In this document: one piece after another, positions 1,186-8,194 of the stretch
Layout: each line of letters opens with the position of its first letter
How positions within the stretch are numbered: the stretch's first letter is position 1
Assembly: GCA_903826575.1 (NCBI GenBank)
Contig: CAIKEU010000101.1
Location: 6,096-70,095, forward strand
Direction: 5' to 3'
Length of the DNA stretch: 64,000 bases
Origin: an uncultured bacterium
GTDB lineage: Bacteria; Actinomycetota; Actinomycetes; S36-B12; CAIYMF01
Position numbers and translations under genes: made by a program
Notes under the pieces: generated by a model
Told to the model about the DNA's origin: nothing
Databases searched by the model: none
The model's input: only the letters and a program-made list of their open reading frames with translations

Positions 1186-1725
1186 TTAGGTCAGTGTGGT
1201 GAATCGTCGGTCGTGGTAGAGCAGCGGCCGTGGTGCAGTGGCGTCGGGCATCACGACGTCATGCACCTCGCCGACTATGACCGTGTGCGTAGCCTGTTGC
1301 ATCGAGTTAACGATGCGGCAGATACACGTGGCAACGGCTCCCGTGAGCACCGGCGTACCGCTGTGATGAGCGGTCCACTGCGGGCCGAATCGATTTTCTC
1401 CGCTGAGCCCAGTTCGGCCTGAGAAGTCTGTGGCAATGCCCTCTTGGCCCGCCGCTAAAAGGTTCACCGAAAACCAGCCCGTCGTGCGTAGCATCTTGGC
1501 CAGGCTTGACTCGCGATTGAGGCACACGACCATCATGGGTGGCTCAGTAGATAGCGAACATACCGCGGTAGCGGTGGCACCTGTTCGACCCGCGGTGGGG
1601 CTAGCTGCCGCTGCAATCGTGACGGTCGCCGCGAGTGAACCCATTGCCCGTAGGAATTGATTGGTCAGTTCAGGGTGGGCCGGCCGAATCGACTCGTCGT
1701 AGACCCATAGGTCGTCGCTGGTCAT
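1186..1725 (-). CDS. Flavin reductase family protein (HpaC/RutF-like)
   Basis: GATATAVCSLSTEPP, FSVNLL and ATHTVIVGEV...PLLYHDRRF motifs. Start reassigned to ATG 1725, 2 bp after the upstream gene's stop. Confidence 0.88.
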   Translation of the reverse strand: MTSDDLWVYDESIRPAHPELTNQFLRAMGSLAATVTIAAAASPTAGRTGATATAVCSLSTEPPMMVVCLNRESSLAKMLRTTGWFSVNLLAAGQEGIATDFSGRTGLSGENRFGPQWTAHHSGTPVLTGAVATCICRIVNSMQQATHTVIVGEVHDVVMPDATAPRPLLYHDRRFTTLT

Positions 1726-1727
1726 CC

Positions 1728-3011
1728 TTAGTAGACCCGTCCATACGTGGTGACTTCCCAATCGGTGACGGTCTGCTCCCACCGTGCGATTTCTGCGCGC
1801 TTAATGGTGGTGAAGACGTTCGTCAGATCTTCGCCTAGTGCGTCGACAAGGACCTGGTCGGCCTCGAGGGATACCAGCGCTTCGCCGAGACTGGCGGCAA
1901 CTGCTGGCACCTCCCCCGGGTTTTCCTCGGCATTGCCGGCACTGGGGGCGGGGGGTTCGAGTTTGCGTTCGACGCCATCGAGCGCAGCGGCGAGAAGCCC
2001 GAGCGAGGCTAGGTGTGGTGAGGCGGTGCCATCCGGTGTTCGATGTTCGATCCTCGTTGCGCTACCGCGTTGGCCCGGAATGCGAATACTGGTGAGCCGG
2101 TTGTCGAGCCCCCACGTACCGTAATAACCGGCGAGCATGCCTGGCCGCAATCTCTTGTACGAGTTGATAGTTGGAGCGAAGAGCGCCGAGAGCGCGGTGT
2201 GATGCTCGATCAAGCCCGCGATCGCGTGGCGACATAATTGCGAAATGCCATCAGCTGCTGATGTGTCTGCAAATGCGTTCGCACCCGTCGAATCATTAGC
2301 GCTCATGTTCAGGTGCATACCGTTGCCGACGAGTCCGTCGAATGGTCGTGCCATGAAGGTTGCACCCATACCGCGCGCGAGGGCGATCTCTCGGACCATG
2401 TCGCGGAATAGGAAGGCAGCGTCCGAGGCAGTGAGTGCATCGCGGTAGCGCAGGGACGCTTCCACCTGACCGGGATGGAACTCGCCGTTAACTCCTTCGA
2501 TGTCAAGGTGAGCGCGGTGACCTGCGTCATGAATCGCATCGAGTAATCCGCTCGGGTCGGCGCCGGGACCGGTGCCGTAAACCCGGTGCATCGGTACGTT
2601 GAGGGGCCCCGACTTCAAAGCTGGATCCTCGCTCAGGAAGAACTCCATCTCGAACCCGATCATCGGATCGAGACCGAGATTCCGCCACTTCGAAACCTGC
2701 TCCGCCAGACGAGTGCGAGCGCACAGTGGCAGCGGTCGTCCGTCGCTGAAGTGCAGATTCGTCATGGCGATGAGGCCGTTATCCCACGACGGACGAACCG
2801 TGGCTGGGTCGAGCCGCGCTTCCATGTCGGGGAAACCGTCACCGACGGAATAGTTCGTGATGTCGTCGAACTCAAGATCTAGGCCCTGGATCATCACGGT
2901 GATTGCGTAATGAGTGGGGTGGTCTCGGTGACTATCGCGAACAACTTTGCCGTGGCTCAATCCGAGAACGTCGGTGAAGAGCAGTCGGATCCGCTCATCG
3001 CTATCGCTCAT
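1728..3011 (-). CDS. Glutamine synthetase-like protein (probable gamma-glutamyl-amine ligase, not housekeeping GlnA)
   Basis: GFEMEFFL, EFHPGQVE, ATFMARP...GNGMHLN, NSYKRL, WGLDNR and RIEHR motifs; short, divergent N-terminus. Confidence 0.88.
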   Translation of the reverse strand: MSDSDERIRLLFTDVLGLSHGKVVRDSHRDHPTHYAITVMIQGLDLEFDDITNYSVGDGFPDMEARLDPATVRPSWDNGLIAMTNLHFSDGRPLPLCARTRLAEQVSKWRNLGLDPMIGFEMEFFLSEDPALKSGPLNVPMHRVYGTGPGADPSGLLDAIHDAGHRAHLDIEGVNGEFHPGQVEASLRYRDALTASDAAFLFRDMVREIALARGMGATFMARPFDGLVGNGMHLNMSANDSTGANAFADTSAADGISQLCRHAIAGLIEHHTALSALFAPTINSYKRLRPGMLAGYYGTWGLDNRLTSIRIPGQRGSATRIEHRTPDGTASPHLASLGLLAAALDGVERKLEPPAPSAGNAEENPGEVPAVAASLGEALVSLEADQVLVDALGEDLTNVFTTIKRAEIARWEQTVTDWEVTTYGRVY

Positions 3012-4066
3012 GTACTTATCCCGTCTGGTGCTGCGAGTTCGCCCTGAAGGTGACCATTCTTCACGACGGCCACACCGTCTAACTCAACGGTGCACTCGCG
3101 CATCGGCAAATCGAAGTGGCATGGTGAAAATCGCTGCGCGTTTTCGTTAGCACCCGTGCTGTACATGAAGTTGCCCTCAAATGCGCGTGCCTCAGTGCCG
3201 TTGATATCGCTGCGATCGTAAAGGTCGATGTAGTCCCAGCGGGCGGCCGGATTCATCCCCCAGCCGAGGTGCGACGATGCGTAGGCATCTCGGCTGTTGA
3301 ACGCTGACATGTAACTAGCCAGTTGCTTCGCCTCATAACCGTCACCGGTGATCTCGGTGACGTAGTCATCGACCACCGTCATCGTGATCGGTGACGTGAC
3401 GTACTTCTTGAAGGTCAGGTTGATGTCGCCGGCAGCTAGGACGATCGTGCCGTTGACTGTCCCTGGCGCCGGGAATGCTAAGACGAGGCCACCGGGCCAG
3501 TGCGCGATGCTGCCGGGGCCGTCCGTTACGCCGGTTGAGCCGGCGCGGAACGATCCGTCGAGGTGCACCGTGAGGTCGGTGCCAGCCCCGCTGGTGACGC
3601 GCATCGTCGACGCGGCGCAGATCATGTCGTAGCCCTTGGCGACGCGATCGGCCATCCCCGAGTCGTGGGGGAGGCGCTCGAAATTCTCTGGGTGCTCATT
3701 ACTGATCATCAGCACCCGCGTGCCAGCGCCGAGAATCGCGCCGAGCTCACGTGAATGTAGGAGGCCTTCAACCGTGCAGTCAACGACGAAATCGGCAGTT
3801 TGTAGAGCAACGATGGCGGCCTCGATGCTCCCCAGTGCAAGGGACGTTCCTGTGGAGCGTAGGGCGACTGGTCCGGGGTTTGCAGGTGTTGGCATCACCA
3901 CCTGAAAGGTGTCGGCGCCTAGGGCTTGTGCGGCGAGTACGGCAGTGTCGACGAGTTCGCGTCGGCTACCCGTTTCCGACAGAACGACACAGGTTTCCGT
4001 CTCATTTAGGCCGCACAACGCGAACTGCTGCCGAAATCTTGAGAGCCAGCGCCATTCAGTGTTCAC
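3008..4066 (-). CDS. NicX-like 2,5-dihydroxypyridine dioxygenase / 'peptidase M29' family protein
   Basis: LLHS, HWPGG, SHLGWG, ARAFEGNFMYSTGANE and CHFDLPMREC match the motif order of Pseudomonas NicX as I recall it. 4-bp overlap with the GS-like gene. Confidence 0.72.
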   Translation of the reverse strand: MNTEWRWLSRFRQQFALCGLNETETCVVLSETGSRRELVDTAVLAAQALGADTFQVVMPTPANPGPVALRSTGTSLALGSIEAAIVALQTADFVVDCTVEGLLHSRELGAILGAGTRVLMISNEHPENFERLPHDSGMADRVAKGYDMICAASTMRVTSGAGTDLTVHLDGSFRAGSTGVTDGPGSIAHWPGGLVLAFPAPGTVNGTIVLAAGDINLTFKKYVTSPITMTVVDDYVTEITGDGYEAKQLASYMSAFNSRDAYASSHLGWGMNPAARWDYIDLYDRSDINGTEARAFEGNFMYSTGANENAQRFSPCHFDLPMRECTVELDGVAVVKNGHLQGELAAPDGIST

Positions 4067-4108
4067 CTGAGCAGGTTATCCGGTATGTGCCTGCGTTCCC
4101 ATCCCGAA

Positions 4109-4123
4109 GTCAACGGTGTTGAC
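4109..4123. promoter_or_regulatory. Palindromic operator candidate GTCAAC-N3-GTTGAC in divergent promoter
   Basis: Perfect 6-bp inverted repeat in the ~90-bp gap between divergent genes; overlaps TTGACA at 4119-4124. Confidence 0.5.
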
Positions 4124-4154
4124 ATGGTTCGGCGGACGGAAGAAACTTGCCACT

Positions 4155-5360
4155 ATGACGACTCTTGCTTCCGTTGACAGCCCCGCGCGCGATCGCGTCG
4201 AGTACCGCGATGCTCTCGTAGCCCAAATTCGTGCCCTTGGCCCAGTTTTCGCTGAGCGAGCCGTTCGCTATGACCGAGAAGCGTCGTTCCCGTTCGAAAA
4301 CTTTTCTGATCTTCGCGATATCGGGTTTTTGGGCCTGTGCGTTCCGACCGAGTACGGCGGGCTCGGAGCCACCTTGGCTGACTACTCGCGCGTTTCCGCC
4401 GAGATTGGTCGCTACTGCGGTGCGACAGCGCTCACGTTCAATATGCACAACGCCACCATGATCTGGGCCGGCGAAGTTGCCGACATGTTGGATATGACCG
4501 ATGAGGCGCGAGCCCTGCACAACGAGCGTCGAGCAGAAATCTTCCGCGGTGTTATCGAAGACGGGATGATTCATAGTCAGCCGTTCAGCGAAGGTGTGTC
4601 TGCCGGTGCGACGTCGGGCGTCATGACCCGCGCGGAAATTGTTGAGGGCGGCTACCGCGTCTCGGGTAAGAAGATTTTCGCTTCGCTGTCAGGTGCAGCC
4701 GATCGCTACAACATCACCTGTCAGGTACCGGGTGAACCGTTCATCCGCCTTCTGTCAGTGGACAGTAACGCCGAGGGTGTCGAGATTGTTGGCGAGTGGG
4801 ACCCACTCGGCATGCGCGGTACGGTTTCGCGCACGCTCATCTTCACCGACGCGTTCGTTCCCGCAGATCAAGAAGTTCTGCCGCCCGGCTCCTATGACGA
4901 AGCGGCGCAACGCTTCCCGTTCGTCTTCATGTCGCTTGCACCGTCTTACCTCGGTGTGACGCAAGGGGTTCTCGATTTTGTGCGCGGCTACCTTCGTGGA
5001 GACATTGCCGGCACACCTAGTGGGCCGCCGCGGCGCGATCTACCGCAGAAGCAACACGGCTGGGCGCAGTTGCAGATCTCGTACGAACAGAGTCGCGCGC
5101 TGCTCTACGACGTCCTCGATAACACTCGTATCGATCCTGACGAGGAGCTACTCGCACGTGCGTGGGCTGCGGTATACACGACAATGGAAACCGCGAATGA
5201 GGTTGCAGCACTTGGGGTCCGCGTGTGCGGCGGGCAGTCGATGCTGAAGCATTTGCCACTCGAGCGTCTCTACCGCGACTCCCGTCTTGGCGCGCTCATG
5301 CTGCCGTGGAGCGGCGAGGTGTGTCTGGACAGACTAGGAACAGCAAAGCTTTACGACTAA
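4155..5360 (+). CDS. Acyl-CoA dehydrogenase family protein (possible flavin-dependent monooxygenase)
   Basis: GLCVPTEYGGLG, SGKKIFASLS, WDPLGMRGTVS and LERLYRDSR motifs. ATG 4155 preferred over the TTG at 4116. Confidence 0.88.
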   Translation: MTTLASVDSPARDRVEYRDALVAQIRALGPVFAERAVRYDREASFPFENFSDLRDIGFLGLCVPTEYGGLGATLADYSRVSAEIGRYCGATALTFNMHNATMIWAGEVADMLDMTDEARALHNERRAEIFRGVIEDGMIHSQPFSEGVSAGATSGVMTRAEIVEGGYRVSGKKIFASLSGAADRYNITCQVPGEPFIRLLSVDSNAEGVEIVGEWDPLGMRGTVSRTLIFTDAFVPADQEVLPPGSYDEAAQRFPFVFMSLAPSYLGVTQGVLDFVRGYLRGDIAGTPSGPPRRDLPQKQHGWAQLQISYEQSRALLYDVLDNTRIDPDEELLARAWAAVYTTMETANEVAALGVRVCGGQSMLKHLPLERLYRDSRLGALMLPWSGEVCLDRLGTAKLYD

Positions 5361-5398
5361 CGATCATGGGGTACCGTGGCCATTGAGGTCACTCGGGG

Positions 5399-6304
5399 GT
5401 GCCCATGGGAGCGAAGGATCATTCGGTTCTTGGGAAACGATTGGTAAAGCAGCCGTTTCCCGATGTTCTAACGCTCGTTGGCCGTGAATTGGCACAGGCC
5501 GTGCTCGTTGCTGCGCCGTCGGCGCAAGCGGGATCCGATGAGGGAATCCATGTACAGCGCGTGGCGGTTCGACGCCTTCGCAGTCTGATCCGTTGTTGTG
5601 TGCCCGTTCTTCGTAGCTCCGATATTGATGAGTTCGCCGAAGATCTGTCCTGGCTCGGGTCAGCACTTGGTGCGAGGCGCGACGTTGACGTCCTTGAGAA
5701 TCACCTCCGGTCCGCGATCAATGCGCTACCGCTTGATGATCGAAGCGAATCGGCCGCGCGTGTTGATGAGTATGTGCTGAAGCTCTATTCAGCGGCTGAT
5801 GTACGGCTAGGCGAGGTGTTCACTTCGGAACGTTATGCCAACCTCGGTGAGCAGTTGGTGGCTGTTGAACTCGGCGCCTTCGTTCGGGCGGATACCCCGG
5901 TATCGGTTGAGACGGTCGTCGGAGAACTGATTCATGGCTCATGGCGGCGGCTGGCAAAGTCAGTGGATCACATTCACAGCGAATCGGATATCACCGAATG
6001 GCATCGGGTGCGTACAAAGGCCAAGAAGCTCCGCTATGTGGTGGAAGTATTCACCCCAATCTTTGGTAGGGATTATGAACGTCTCGGCCGACGCCTAGCT
6101 GCCGTGACCGACGAACTTGGCGAGCAAAGAGACGCGTACGCCTGCTCCGAAGCGCTGGCCGAAATTGCAGGTAATGTTCCGGGGCACCTAGCGTTTGAGT
6201 TCGGACGGATGGCCTTTATTCAGGAGATTCGGAGCGTCACTGCGGCCGAGGAGTTTCCTGCGCTGTGGCGCAGAGTGCGCAGTAGTTTCGAGTCGGCGGT
6301 CTAG
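5399..6304 (+). CDS. CHAD domain-containing protein
   Basis: IHVQRVAVRRLRS, LGARRDVDV, WHRVRTKAKKLRY and LGEQRD motifs. Confidence 0.88.
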   Translation: MPMGAKDHSVLGKRLVKQPFPDVLTLVGRELAQAVLVAAPSAQAGSDEGIHVQRVAVRRLRSLIRCCVPVLRSSDIDEFAEDLSWLGSALGARRDVDVLENHLRSAINALPLDDRSESAARVDEYVLKLYSAADVRLGEVFTSERYANLGEQLVAVELGAFVRADTPVSVETVVGELIHGSWRRLAKSVDHIHSESDITEWHRVRTKAKKLRYVVEVFTPIFGRDYERLGRRLAAVTDELGEQRDAYACSEALAEIAGNVPGHLAFEFGRMAFIQEIRSVTAAEEFPALWRRVRSSFESAV

Positions 6305-7245
6305 TGCGTCAAGGCTTGAACAGCACGCATTCTCTCGCCGACTAACTGAGCATCGAGTTTAGTGAACTCTTGGCTGTTCATTGAGATAATTTCGTTTTTG
6401 TATCCACTTTCGACTGCGTACCAAATGCCAACTAAATTAGTTTTGTCTCGGCAATGGGCGTCACTGGTGGCAGTGCGAAGCTCGTCAGTCGTGGGAGGTT
6501 CGTCCATCTTCCAGCCCGCATCGTTTGCTTGCCAAGGCGAACTGAATTTAAGCCCAAAGCCGGCCATGCATTCAGACCAAGCCCGCCATGCAACTTGAAC
6601 CCGTTCGTCGTTCTCTGCGAAAGTCGACGCATCGTGACTACGTGAGTTCGCGACCTCGGGGTCAAGTGGGTTCGGACCAACTAACTGAGACCACGCTTGG
6701 GTGTAGCAGCCCCCGTTAGGGAGTGGATTAACATCCCGATCTTTCAGTGCGTCCGCGCCCGGCCCGGTCCCGTACGCTGTCAACTCTTCAAGCGGCGACG
6801 GAGTCCATGCGCTGGACGCCCCCTTGTCGTTGGAACTGCTGGAGGGATCCGCTGCCGCAGGCGCGTGGTAACCGAGAACTTGCGCTTCGGCCAGCGATGC
6901 AATTCCGTAGTGACGACTATTGTCGATTGGAACGGTTGTTATGTTGCCAGAGTTGCTGTTCGCAACCCCGAAACGGTTCTCACATGCGCTAGCTAGAACT
7001 ATGGTTGCGCGGCTCATCAGTAGTTGATCGTCTGGTGAAAGTTCGTATCTGTCCATGGGGTACGTCAGCGCCGACGCGTCGCTGACCCTGGGTGGTGATG
7101 ACGAGATGGTTGGGGGTGCTGGTACAAGGTCGCCTGCCGAAGCGCCCACTTGTCCATTGATCGCAGCAATTCCTGCGCCGGTTGCCATGACTGTGAGGCA
7201 AATCGTGACGGTTGAACTCGAAAAAAATCGTCGGCCGTGTCCCAT
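6301..7245 (-). CDS. Hypothetical exported protein (Streptomyces-type, four Cys in the mature region)
   Basis: N-terminal hydrophobic/signal segment; YPMDRY..AC, GGCY, WSECM and AxSDAHCR pattern; 9 bp downstream of the crystallin-like gene. Confidence 0.6.
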   Translation of the reverse strand: MGHGRRFFSSSTVTICLTVMATGAGIAAINGQVGASAGDLVPAPPTISSSPPRVSDASALTYPMDRYELSPDDQLLMSRATIVLASACENRFGVANSNSGNITTVPIDNSRHYGIASLAEAQVLGYHAPAAADPSSSSNDKGASSAWTPSPLEELTAYGTGPGADALKDRDVNPLPNGGCYTQAWSQLVGPNPLDPEVANSRSHDASTFAENDERVQVAWRAWSECMAGFGLKFSSPWQANDAGWKMDEPPTTDELRTATSDAHCRDKTNLVGIWYAVESGYKNEIISMNSQEFTKLDAQLVGERMRAVQALTH

Positions 7246-7254
7246 ATCATCACC

Positions 7255-7674
7255 TTAAGAAACGTAGAAGGACGAAATTCGGTCGTTCCACCCGGCGGCA
7301 GTCGCATCCCAGCTTGCGCCCATGTCCTTGTAATGAGGACTGCTCGTTGGATAGAAACTGCCACCGTAATTGACGTTCACATATATCTGCACGTCGCAGC
7401 CGTTGAAGTCCTTACCTGAACTTATCTGATCATTCCAAGCGTCCGAGACATACGAGATTGAGTCGTCGTGATCGGTCACCTCTGGCGTGCACGCACCTGT
7501 TCCGACAACCTTGAAAAGACCGCCGGCGAAGCCGGCATGTTCGAAGAATTGAACCCTAGTTAACGAACCGCTGCCAACCGTTCTGTTGGCGACTGCGTTG
7601 GCACTTGTCGAGGTAACGAAAATGGAGGTCAATGCGCTGACAATGGCAATCCCGAAAATTATCGGCGAACGCAT
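7255..7674 (-). CDS. Secreted beta/gamma-crystallin-fold protein (peptidase inhibitor I36-like)
   Basis: Signal peptide ending ANA; two Greek-key repeats FFEHAGFAG...WNDQISS and IYVNVNYGG...WNDRISS; GGAG RBS before ATG 7674. Confidence 0.75.
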   Translation of the reverse strand: MRSPIIFGIAIVSALTSIFVTSTSANAVANRTVGSGSLTRVQFFEHAGFAGGLFKVVGTGACTPEVTDHDDSISYVSDAWNDQISSGKDFNGCDVQIYVNVNYGGSFYPTSSPHYKDMGASWDATAAGWNDRISSFYVS

Positions 7675-7714
7675 ATCATTCTCCAGCAGTCGCGCGGAAG
7701 TTGAACATATCTGA

Positions 7715-7743
7715 TGTATATCCGTATATTTACAACATGTCAA
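7715..7743 (-). promoter_or_regulatory. Sigma70-type promoter for the crystallin-like operon
   Basis: TTGACA (7743-7738), 17-bp spacer, TATACA (7720-7715). The -35 lies within a TGTCA-N8-TGACA inverted repeat. Confidence 0.6.
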
Positions 7744-7869
7744 GAAGGTCTGACAAATAGACACATTCATCGTTAAGTTGCGCAACAAGAGATTATGAGA
7801 AATCTAAAAAGACGTTTTTGCATGCCACTTTTCATCACGTATGAGTAGCGCAGGAATTGGACTCAATGC

Positions 7870-7905
7870 AAAAACTGGCCGACCCCAAAGGGTCGACCAG
7901 TTTTT
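7870..7905 (-). terminator. Intrinsic terminator, identical to the one at 8083-8118
   Basis: AAAAACTGG-CCGACCC-CAAA-GGGTCGA-CCAGTTTTT hairpin. Confidence 0.75.
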
Positions 7906-7973
7906 AGTCGGGGTGGCGGGACCCCGTCGAGGTGCCTGGCGGCACCTCTTCCTCCTCGAATCCCCGGACCCCA

Positions 7974-8012
7974 AAAAAATGATGGCCGGCCCCGTAGGGC
8001 CAGCCATCATTT
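7974..8012 (-). terminator. Intrinsic terminator (variant, middle repeat unit)
   Basis: AAATGATGG...GGCCC-CGTA-GGGCC...CCATCATTT hairpin with a T-run on the minus strand. Confidence 0.72.
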
Positions 8013-8080
8013 AGTCGGGGTGGCGGGACCCGTCGGATCACCTTCGGCGCTCCTCCTCCCGAATCCCACTCAGCTCGATT

Positions 8081-8118
8081 AAAAAAACTGGCCGACCCCA
8101 AAGGGTCGACCAGTTTTT
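8081..8118 (-). terminator. Intrinsic terminator directly after tRNA-Pro
   Basis: Same hairpin as 7870-7905, followed by T7 on the minus strand. Confidence 0.8.
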
Positions 8119-8120
8119 AG

Positions 8121-8194
<74 letters not shown>

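Follow-up and report, generated by a model that had tools for sequence, protein, structure and literature searches.

Among the nearest described relatives of the gene group analysed here is the maleamate pathway of Pseudomonas putida KT2440, in which the Fe(II) dioxygenase NicX opens 2,5-dihydroxypyridine (2,5-DHP). NicX cuts the bond between the hydroxylated carbon and the nitrogen-attached carbon in the HO-C=C-NH-C(=O) unit of its substrate. Its iron ligands are His265, Ser302, His318 and Asp320; His105, Glu177 and His189 form the substrate network, in which Glu177 hydrogen-bonds N1-H and O1 (the C2 oxygen) of 2,5-DHP, while Glu308 and Cys76 control a channel (PMC7910607). The group in question consists of four adjacent genes (Table 1) in a 64,000-nucleotide stretch of DNA from an uncultured bacterium of the Actinomycetota (contig CAIKEU010000101.1), which we call the window. 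They encode a NicX-like protein, a glutamine synthetase (GS)-like ligase, a flavin reductase and, divergently, a protein of the acyl-CoA dehydrogenase (ACAD) fold. We propose, at a shade less than an even chance of being right, that these genes encode the core enzymes of a horizontally mobile cassette by which a compound other than 2,5-DHP, an amine-bearing aromatic or N-heteroaromatic one, is catabolised.

The P. putida pathway (NicC-NicX-NicD-NicF-NicE; 7CN3, PMC7910607) and the module, as the gene set is called below, share a flavin hydroxylase, an M29-fold Fe(II) dioxygenase with a His/Ser/His/Asp site, an adjacent alpha/beta hydrolase (in relatives of the module) and a predicted cleavage beside the nitrogen. 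The hydroxylase of the module is a predicted two-component ACAD-fold enzyme, whereas the nic pathway uses one class A FAD monooxygenase. The module dioxygenase has Glu177 and Glu308 replaced and belongs to a separate clade, the hydrolase is PcaD-like, the NicF amidase and NicE isomerase are absent, and the additions are a GS-like ligase, an APC permease and a TetR regulator. Glutamylation pathways, namely those for aniline (AtdA1/TdnQ with a Rieske dioxygenase), 1-naphthylamine (NpaA1), isopropylamine (IpuC) and putrescine (PuuA), likewise hold a GS-like ligase and an oxygenase in one catabolic cluster, and C26 gamma-glutamyl hydrolases occur in some loci related to the module. Their oxygenases are Rieske dioxygenases or cytochromes P450 (P450s), unlike the ACAD-fold and NicX-type enzymes of the module, and the window module has no amidotransferase-like partner.

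The two-component ACAD-fold monooxygenases (DszC/TdsC, HsaA, C2 of p-hydroxyphenylacetate hydroxylase, IifC/IacA-type indole oxygenases, KijD3 and 5Z8T) resemble the module protein in fold, in lacking the catalytic Glu and in having an HpaC/RutF-class reductase nearby; however, identity to the solved members does not exceed ~30%, and the constant partner of the module protein is a NicX-like dioxygenase. The sdgABCD genes of Streptomyces sp. WA46 and the cehGHI genes of Rhizobium sp. X9, which encode CoA-dependent salicylate-to-gentisate routes, follow the same logic of ligase, hydroxylase, hydrolase or thioesterase and ring-cleaving dioxygenase as marine alphaproteobacterial relatives of the module, but all four protein families differ, and the window copy has a GS-like enzyme and no such ligase.

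The first-pass annotation, made from the window sequence, had matched the genes to no described pathway. Likewise, no pathway with this gene set was found in the searchable full-text literature, which also gave no account of the ACAD-fold/NicX-like pairing or of non-DHP NicX paralogs; it covers few subscription journals, so that absence is unproven. Judged by its sequences, the module appears to join elements of the maleamate NicC/X/D logic and of gamma-glutamylating arylamine pathways with an ACAD-fold oxygenase. New here are the tree and residue table of canonical and module proteins, the double recruitment of the ligase, the split architecture and tRNA-Pro islet of this genome, and a set of cultured carriers amenable to genetics. 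Solving the cassette would assign a function to thousands of genes mis-named ‘peptidase M29’, ‘2,5-dihydroxypyridine dioxygenase’ or ‘acyl-CoA dehydrogenase’, would give the NicX dioxygenase family its second substrate class, and would possibly explain the use of a common dissolved N-containing aromatic compound by abundant planktonic bacteria.

Iron site and substrate pocket of the NicX-like protein

A phmmer comparison of the NicX-like protein with NicX (7CN3) gave an E-value of 5.2e-57 over 334 residues (11–344), and identity to NicX proteins is ~39–42%. The precomputed Pfam assignment of close homologs is PF26233 (NicX); local Pfam and NCBIfam libraries, in which the Pfam copy was without PF26233, returned no match. 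The iron ligands are kept as H266, S303, H317 and D319 (own numbering). Together with the equivalents of NicX His105, His189 and Arg293 they are invariant in 28 module members, from which an oxygenase role is predicted to be retained. The pocket is altered: Glu177 is replaced by Ser and Glu308 by Asn, and Cys76 lies within a three-residue stretch of NicX that is absent here. Glu never stands at position 177 among 30 module members: Actinomycetota have Ser there, marine Alphaproteobacteria Val and Rhizobiales Thr; position 308 is Asn, Val, Phe, Tyr, His or Thr. By contrast, all four NicX proteins examined from canonical nic clusters (Cupriavidus, Azospirillum, Variovorax and Caballeronia; loci L094, L099, L100 and L101) keep both Glu177 and Glu308. 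NicD-like and NicF-like neighbours accompany each of the four, and NicC-like and NicE-like neighbours three of them.

In a maximum-likelihood tree, the four canonical NicX proteins form one clade (SH-aLRT 99) and the 30 module proteins another (98), with long branches between them. This was the tree that the first-pass annotation had proposed, and it qualifies the name given there: ‘NicX-like’ holds for the fold and the iron site, and fails for the 2,5-DHP pocket and for clade membership. On sequence grounds the protein is best described as a paralog from a sister clade in which the oxygenase machinery is retained and the DHP pocket is not. Because both glutamates are lost and the clade is separate, 2,5-DHP is an unlikely substrate.

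The genomic context bears on the same question. We fetched 79 loci from species-representative genomes, of which 76 had a clear NicX-like match, and mapped reference proteins by tblastn within a radius of 8 kb. In contrast to the canonical clusters, neither the surroundings of the module in the window nor any of the 76 related loci contained homologs of NicC, NicF or NicE. The hydrolase of the module is 24–26% identical to NicD, its best families being PcaD-like enol-lactonases and esterases, and on this sequence evidence it is not a NicD ortholog. The usual NicX partners, noted as missing in the first-pass annotation, are thus absent from the module and from all 76 loci alike. These observations make it very improbable that the locus is a fragment of an ordinary 2,5-DHP (maleamate) pathway for nicotinate or hydroxypyridines, with a true DHP 5,6-dioxygenase. 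The identity to NicX, the complete set of iron ligands and the automatic JGI names of close homologs (‘2,5-dihydroxypyridine 5,6-dioxygenase’) would fit such a pathway; the replaced Glu177, the separate clade and the missing partners speak against it, and NCBI names the orthologs of cultured strains ‘peptidase M29’.

A third kind of NicX homolog, with Gln177 and a long branch, is found on a Rhodococcus pyridinivorans YF3 plasmid from a quinoline-degrading reactor (L095:6977-7990). Its neighbours encode Rieske dioxygenase subunits and isochorismatase-family, short-chain dehydrogenase/reductase (SDR), protocatechuate-3,4-dioxygenase-like, C-N hydrolase and Asp/Glu racemase-type proteins, and the locus is probably another uncharacterised N-heterocycle pathway.

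The ACAD-fold protein and its flavin reductase

The divergently encoded protein has the N, M and C Pfam domains of ACADs. The catalytic base of these enzymes is a Glu at the position of Glu376 in medium-chain acyl-CoA dehydrogenase (MCAD) or of Glu254 in isovaleryl-CoA dehydrogenase (IVD). In an alignment to the butyryl-CoA dehydrogenase Bcd (5OL2), the Glu of YEGT (MCAD-376) corresponds to a Leu in RDSRLGALMLPW, and the IVD-type position (DGGR of Bcd) aligns to Val/Phe, again with no Glu. The best sequence matches in the PDB are 5GJ7/5Z8T (E 2.6e-42, ~30% identity), the next best being twenty orders of magnitude weaker. These two entries are known here by deposit title alone, that of 5Z8T being ‘Flavin-containing monooxygenase’; a Glu-less RD-R-G----P motif is common to 5Z8T and the module protein.

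The reductase matches Flavin_Reduct (PF01613; 124 bits, 8.6e-36), and the RutF and HpaC models score 1e-33 to 1e-30 on it, far under their cut-offs. Orthologs in two close relatives of the window (L010 and L049) are 88–89% identical over 179 aa, and the reductase is co-encoded with the ACAD-fold gene in at least three lineages; it is found in the window, in the nearest clades and in the Rhizobiales (Aminobacter and Ensifer). The first-pass annotation had taken the ACAD-like protein for an oxygenase rather than an ordinary CoA-thioester dehydrogenase. That reading is upheld by the lack of Glu at either base position, by 5Z8T as the nearest structure and by the co-encoded reductase, and the protein is predicted to be the oxygenase component of a two-component (class D) flavin monooxygenase.

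No NCBIfam equivalog cut-off is reached by the protein, and it resembles the indole-oxidising XiaF, or TdsC and DszC, no more than it does other ACAD-fold proteins. In the ESM Atlas it retrieved generic ‘acyl-CoA dehydrogenase’ clusters and nothing else.

A larger cassette shared by several phyla

The neighbourhood is shared by Actinomycetota, an Acidobacteria metagenome-assembled genome (MAG) and Alphaproteobacteria, an answer to the conservation search that the first-pass annotation had called for. Among the 76 loci, an alpha/beta hydrolase lies near the NicX-like gene in 68, an ACAD-fold ortholog (44–97% identity) in 64, a GS-like gene in 48, a TetR gene in 27, an APC permease in 21 and a flavin reductase (PF01613) in 11, and de novo clustering of neighbouring open reading frames (ORFs) revealed an AMP-forming ligase in 29. 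With the ACAD ortholog at 64 loci and the GS-like gene at 48, the grouping of the genes is not due to chance, and the partner counts and the ORF clustering together single out the trio of ACAD-fold, hydrolase and NicX-like genes as the most conserved unit. The contexts of three distant homologs gave the same partners together with alpha/beta hydrolase, APC permease, TetR and C26 amidotransferase-type hydrolase genes, and the set was also seen in Nocardioides-type contigs. The four genes had been described as a compact module; they are not a complete one but a reduced copy of a larger cassette, in which a hydrolase nearly always stands beside the NicX-like gene and TetR and an APC permease are often present.

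The cassette is distributed over freshwater acI/Nanopelagicales, Acidimicrobiales, Gaiellales, soil actinomycetes and Rhizobiales plasmids, with a ligase-swapped form in marine SAR116 and Rhodobacteraceae. In Actinomycetota the GS-like gene usually follows the NicX-like gene directly, and it is found within 5 kb in 34 of the 45 loci of the clade with Ser177. The marine SAR116 and Rhodobacteraceae have an operon of NicX-like, hydrolase, ACAD and ligase genes, never with a GS. The inclusion of the GS-like ligase in the module therefore stands in part: it neighbours the NicX-like gene at 48 of the 76 loci, but it is accessory to the wider trio, the marine alphaproteobacterial versions having a CoA ligase in its stead. 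An association between pocket type and the presence of a GS within the Ser177 clade was considered and dropped, no residue at 177 or 308 separating GS-linked from GS-less loci.

The cassette is also found in cultured Rhizobiales. A tblastn search of plasmid records found ~50%-identical copies in Aminobacter aminovorans KCTC 2477 (pAA02), Ensifer adhaerens, Sinorhizobium sp. RAC02 and Shinella sp. PSBB067. All four have one ordered array of NicX-like (annotated ‘peptidase M29’ by NCBI, not NicX), ACAD-family, alpha/beta hydrolase, TetR, glutamine synthetase-family and APC permease genes, and a flavin reductase is annotated in two, Aminobacter and Ensifer. The Ensifer cassette has the locus tags LAC81_RS35370-35400 (strain W2-B9, p1) and that of Aminobacter AA2016_RS29925-29960. 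An IS3 transposase and a VapBC pair border the Ensifer array, and the cassette therefore looks self-contained and mobile, with its own importer and regulator. In Aminobacter it is preceded by a gentisate/5-aminosalicylate-dioxygenase-like gene and an FAH-family hydrolase gene. These cultured carriers make the question of function directly testable.

The AMP-forming ligases raise the alternative that an aromatic or alicyclic acid is first converted to a CoA thioester, with the ACAD-fold protein as a dehydrogenase or CoA-ester hydroxylase, the hydrolase as a thioesterase and the NicX-like enzyme cutting the released para- or ortho-substituted ring, by analogy with the routes from salicylyl-CoA to gentisate. 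In the 29 loci the ligase lies in the same array, and these include all the marine alphaproteobacterial four-gene operons; the hydrolases have weak Pfam ‘Thioesterase’ matches, and the modelled ACAD-fold protein superposes equally well on true acyl-CoA dehydrogenases. Yet many trio loci have no ligase at all, none orthologous lies near the window module (the best ligase matches in that genome are 28–33% identical), and the ligases are not orthologous between clades: that of the marine Alphaproteobacteria is MenE/FadD-like, whereas the acI-type one is benzoate-CoA-ligase-like, scoring just under the cut-off of that family. A dehydrogenase would, moreover, have no need of the co-encoded reductase and would be expected to keep a catalytic Glu at one of the two base positions. 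We consider a CoA route of this kind quite unlikely.

Two further explanations are that the genes are biosynthetic, for example with an ACAD-fold amine N-oxygenase as in nitrososynthases, or that they are simply adjacent without a shared function. In favour, the better PDB sequence matches of the ACAD-fold protein include three nitrososynthases, KijD3, ORF36 and DnmZ (E 1e-16 to 1e-18). Such explanations are extremely improbable, given that the set is found in more than one phylum, with overlapping frames and accompanied by a TetR regulator and an importer, that no glycosyltransferase, polyketide synthase, non-ribosomal peptide synthetase or sugar genes lie nearby, and that its patchy, island-like spread is typical of catabolic cassettes.

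Several features of individual loci were recorded in passing. In SAR116 (L077, L079-L083) the region ~6 kb upstream of the NicX-like gene encodes a CMD-family protein, a 2-oxoglutarate-Fe(II) oxygenase, a 362-aa unknown protein and a true M29 aminopeptidase, and the four-gene operon is flanked by an SBP3-type ATP-binding cassette (ABC) transporter and a tripartite ATP-independent periplasmic (TRAP) transporter. Seven freshwater MAG records labelled ‘Bifidobacterium breve’ (L020, L023, L024) or ‘Rubrivirga’/‘Rubricoccaceae’ (L028-L030, L032) have acI-type modules near-identical in order and sequence to those of Nanopelagicales; their organism labels look wrong, or the contigs mis-binned.

Two lineages of GS-like ligase

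The ligase matches the catalytic domain of glutamine synthetases (Gln-synt_C, PF00120; 298 bits, 8.5e-89) and keeps the metal, ATP and glutamate motifs EMEFF, NGEFHPGQVE, GNGMH, NSYKR, DNR..IR and RIEHR. It reaches no NCBIfam equivalog cut-off, scoring 229 of 429 bits for GlnA, 232 of 470 for GS-III and 256 of 650 for gamma-glutamylputrescine synthetase. Nor is it any closer to NpaA1 (8WWU), which it matches at 121 bits against ~180 bits for true glutamine synthetases. We predict from these features that it is a gamma-glutamyl-amine ligase.

A quick tree of 58 GS-like proteins, whose long branches leave exact placements unsure, separated the module-attached ligases into two non-sister lineages that are clearly not orthologous, each strongly supported. 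Type A (39 rows, support 99) comprises the copies of the window, acI, Acidimicrobiales and Kineosporia; it is monophyletic with the GS that follows the NicX-like gene in other Actinomycetota, and distinct from the second, Puu/Ipu-like GS of acI loci. Type B comprises the Nocardioides-type and Rhizobiales copies, 27% identical to the window ligase. The recruitment of two unrelated GS-like lineages suggests that the module repeatedly needs such a ligase.

Setting of the module in its genome

No hydrolase lies between the ACAD and NicX-like genes in the window, nor in the three relatives closest to it (L010, L011 and L049). A hydrolase ortholog, 68% identical to the acI-type hydrolase and with an adjacent TetR gene, is found elsewhere in the window genome, on contig C13, unlinked to the module; a permease ortholog is on contig C77. 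At the thresholds used, the NicX-like gene, a high-identity ACAD ortholog and the C13 hydrolase co-occur in the same 4 of 41 sampled relatives and in none of the others. Since these four genomes form one subclade, the pattern supports a functional link of the C13 hydrolase only weakly.

Synteny with congeners places the module next to a tRNA-Pro gene. Congeners without it have a tight row of asd, orf158, tRNA-Pro(CGG) and a metallophosphoesterase gene. In the window, ~6.95 kb (1186–8119) stands at the 3' end of the tRNA-Pro(CGG) gene (8120–8194) and holds the module, a CHAD gene, two genes for small secreted proteins and repeated tRNA-end units; no integrase gene was found in this segment. Other congeners have 3–6 kb of different DNA at the same tRNA-Pro spot. 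A segment beside tRNA-Pro that differs from one congener to the next makes the module part of a variable (hypervariable) islet, and its patchy presence, in 4 of 24 sampled congeners, fits such an islet.

The TetR-hydrolase pair on contig C13 (C13:31684-33315; L089:6658-8316) adjoins genes for a Baeyer-Villiger-type flavin monooxygenase, a Zn-dependent alcohol dehydrogenase, a DUF1697 protein and an isochorismatase-family protein. The ortholog of this hydrolase in one relative (G003:C57:6925-7818) has two in-frame TGA codons and is a pseudogene or an assembly error. Contig C18 (L090:1399-12389) holds a second gamma-glutamyl-type cluster, resembling isopropylamine- and putrescine-type glutamylation pathways, with genes for a P450, an SDR, a C26 amidotransferase-like hydrolase, a GS-like ligase, another P450, a 392-aa unknown protein, an MppR-like protein of the acetoacetate-decarboxylase family and a class III aminotransferase. 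In acI loci (L026-L046) this gene set adjoins the NicX-like module.

A possible catabolic route

The first-pass annotation had proposed that the genes hydroxylate, glutamylate and ring-cleave an amino-substituted N-heterocycle or aromatic amine. What we observe is gene structure, protein families, active-site residues, a conserved gene set and a split from canonical NicX; from these we infer a substrate class, a series of reactions and their order. To our knowledge, every characterised catabolic GS-like enzyme glutamylates as the first step, PuuA, IpuC and NpaA1 being among the precedents. Glutamylation before oxygenation has a precedent in aniline degradation by AtdA1/TdnQ, as cited in bioRxiv 10.1101/2024.12.29.630347. 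By analogy, the GS-like ligase would first gamma-glutamylate the amino group of the compound with ATP and glutamate. The ACAD-fold protein, supplied with reduced flavin by the co-encoded reductase, would then hydroxylate the ring carbon beside the N-bearing carbon, and the NicX-family Fe(II) dioxygenase would cut the C-C bond between these two carbons, giving an N-acyl acid of imide or formamide type. In the last step the PcaD-like alpha/beta hydrolase, encoded on another contig in the window genome, would split this product into glutamine or glutamate and an unsaturated acid. Such a series would make the cassette of six to seven genes self-sufficient and would explain why most cassettes lack a C26 hydrolase; the TetR regulator and APC importer point to the uptake of a charged amine or amino acid.

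A more specific form of this chemistry, which we rate as unlikely, would have the ligase turn a hydroxylated arylamine into a compound of the N-acyl-ortho-aminophenol type, its gamma-glutamyl amide forming part of a motif that imitates the HO-C=C-NH-C(=O) unit of 2,5-DHP. By cutting C(OH)-C(N) in the carbocyclic or heterocyclic ring, the NicX-type enzyme would give an imide, from which the hydrolase would free the former amine nitrogen directly as the amide of glutamine. If true, this would be a previously unknown kind of arylamine ring cleavage, combined with direct salvage of amine nitrogen into glutamine, in abundant freshwater and soil bacteria.

Several observations weigh against the glutamylate-hydroxylate-cleave-hydrolyse order. 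The trio occurs without a GS in marine Alphaproteobacteria and at some loci of Actinomycetota, so that glutamylation is not universally needed for cleavage, and an AMP-forming CoA ligase, present instead of or beside the GS at many loci, hints at a carboxylate and possibly at CoA chemistry. A fold search with an AlphaFold 2 model of the ACAD-fold protein (pLDDT 85.7) ties it with true acyl-CoA dehydrogenases, all at Z 37–39, equal scores at which the search cannot tell oxygenases from dehydrogenases; judged from the model, the protein may act on a CoA ester. The hydrolase, at only 24–26% identity to NicD, has a putative role in this series. No hydrolase, regulator or transporter lies next to the four genes in the window, and the C13 hydrolase is tied to them by orthology and by co-occurrence within a single subclade.

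The conservation of the trio also suits a scheme in which it opens an N-heterocycle and the ligase acts last. The ACAD-fold protein would hydroxylate the CH next to the ring NH, the NicX-like enzyme would cut HO-C=CH-NH, the hydrolase would deformylate, and a GS would act at the NH2 group or a CoA ligase at the COOH group, in the best case from indole through indoxyl and N-formylanthranilate to anthranilate. This possible but doubtful scheme accounts for the trio as a universal core, standing alone at many loci and mirroring the NicC-NicX-NicD logic. It also accounts for occasional aryl-CoA-ligase-like, gentisate-dioxygenase-like and kynureninase-like neighbours: the acI ligase near the benzoate-CoA-ligase cut-off, the genes before the Aminobacter cassette, and a kynureninase-like gene beside a Streptosporangium locus. 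Ser, Val or Thr at position 177 and Asn, Phe, Tyr or Val at 308 would enlarge and de-charge the side of the pocket that would take up a fused benzo ring. However, indole needs no APC, TRAP or ABC importer, and the cassette has transporters. No enzyme downstream of gamma-glutamyl-anthranilate is present; the scheme does not account for what becomes of a glutamylated product, and action at the end of a pathway is not known for any GS-like enzyme. The kynurenine link is seen at one of the 76 loci and the gentisate link in one of the four Rhizobiales, and the ACAD-fold protein stands no nearer to XiaF, TdsC or DszC than to other proteins of its fold. A kynurenine link as a general association of the clade was considered and dropped, the kynureninase gene of the window genome standing alone on contig C104 and such a gene being nearby at that single locus. 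A cassette for an amine-bearing compound, with glutamylation as its first step, remains the reading that we prefer.

Gene layout and junctions

All four ORFs are present, and their translations are free of stops. The arrangement given in the first-pass annotation, three coupled genes with a 4-bp overlap and a 2-bp gap, divergent from the ACAD-fold gene, proved exact when the junctions were read from the sequence. The stop of the NicX-like gene and the start of the GS-like gene share ATGA at 3008–3011, the former ending in ...GGGATAAGTACATGA with the GS-like ATG inside. The GS-like gene ends in TAC TAA, followed by ‘gg’ and by ATGACCAGC, the flavin reductase start at ATG 1725. As this ATG lies 2 bp past the GS stop, a listed 198-aa ORF with a GTG start, reaching 1782, is too long for the flavin reductase; the 179-aa length agrees with relatives.

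The ACAD-fold protein has 414 aa from GTG 4116 or 401 aa from ATG 4155, leaving a divergent spacer of 49 bp or 88 bp, respectively. The ATG is the probable start and is the one used in one public record. A TTGACA hexamer lies at 4119–4124 in the spacer, where inverted repeats are weak only, and scans of this intergenic region for promoters, terminators and operators gave nothing above shuffled expectation.

Table 1. Features of the module in the window (positions of the whole stretch)
Feature	Coordinates	Strand	Remarks
NAD(P)H:flavin reductase, HpaC/RutF class, 179 aa	1186..1725	-	PF01613; third and last in the operon
Glutamine-synthetase-like ATP-dependent ligase, 427 aa, predicted gamma-glutamyl-amine ligase, lineage ‘type A’	1728..3011	-	PF00120
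NicX-family (M29-fold) mononuclear Fe(II) ring-cleaving dioxygenase homolog, 352 aa, altered substrate pocket	3008..4066	-	7CN3 match
Spacer separating the divergent NicX-like operon and ACAD-fold gene, presumed to hold promoter and operator	4067..4154	.	
ACAD-fold flavoprotein, predicted oxygenase component of a two-component flavin monooxygenase	4116..5360	+	ACAD N, M and C domains

An ORF at 689–1165 on the minus strand, encoding a 158-aa predicted two-helix membrane protein without a family match, was weighed as a fifth gene and dropped; it adjoins asd in congeners with and without the module.

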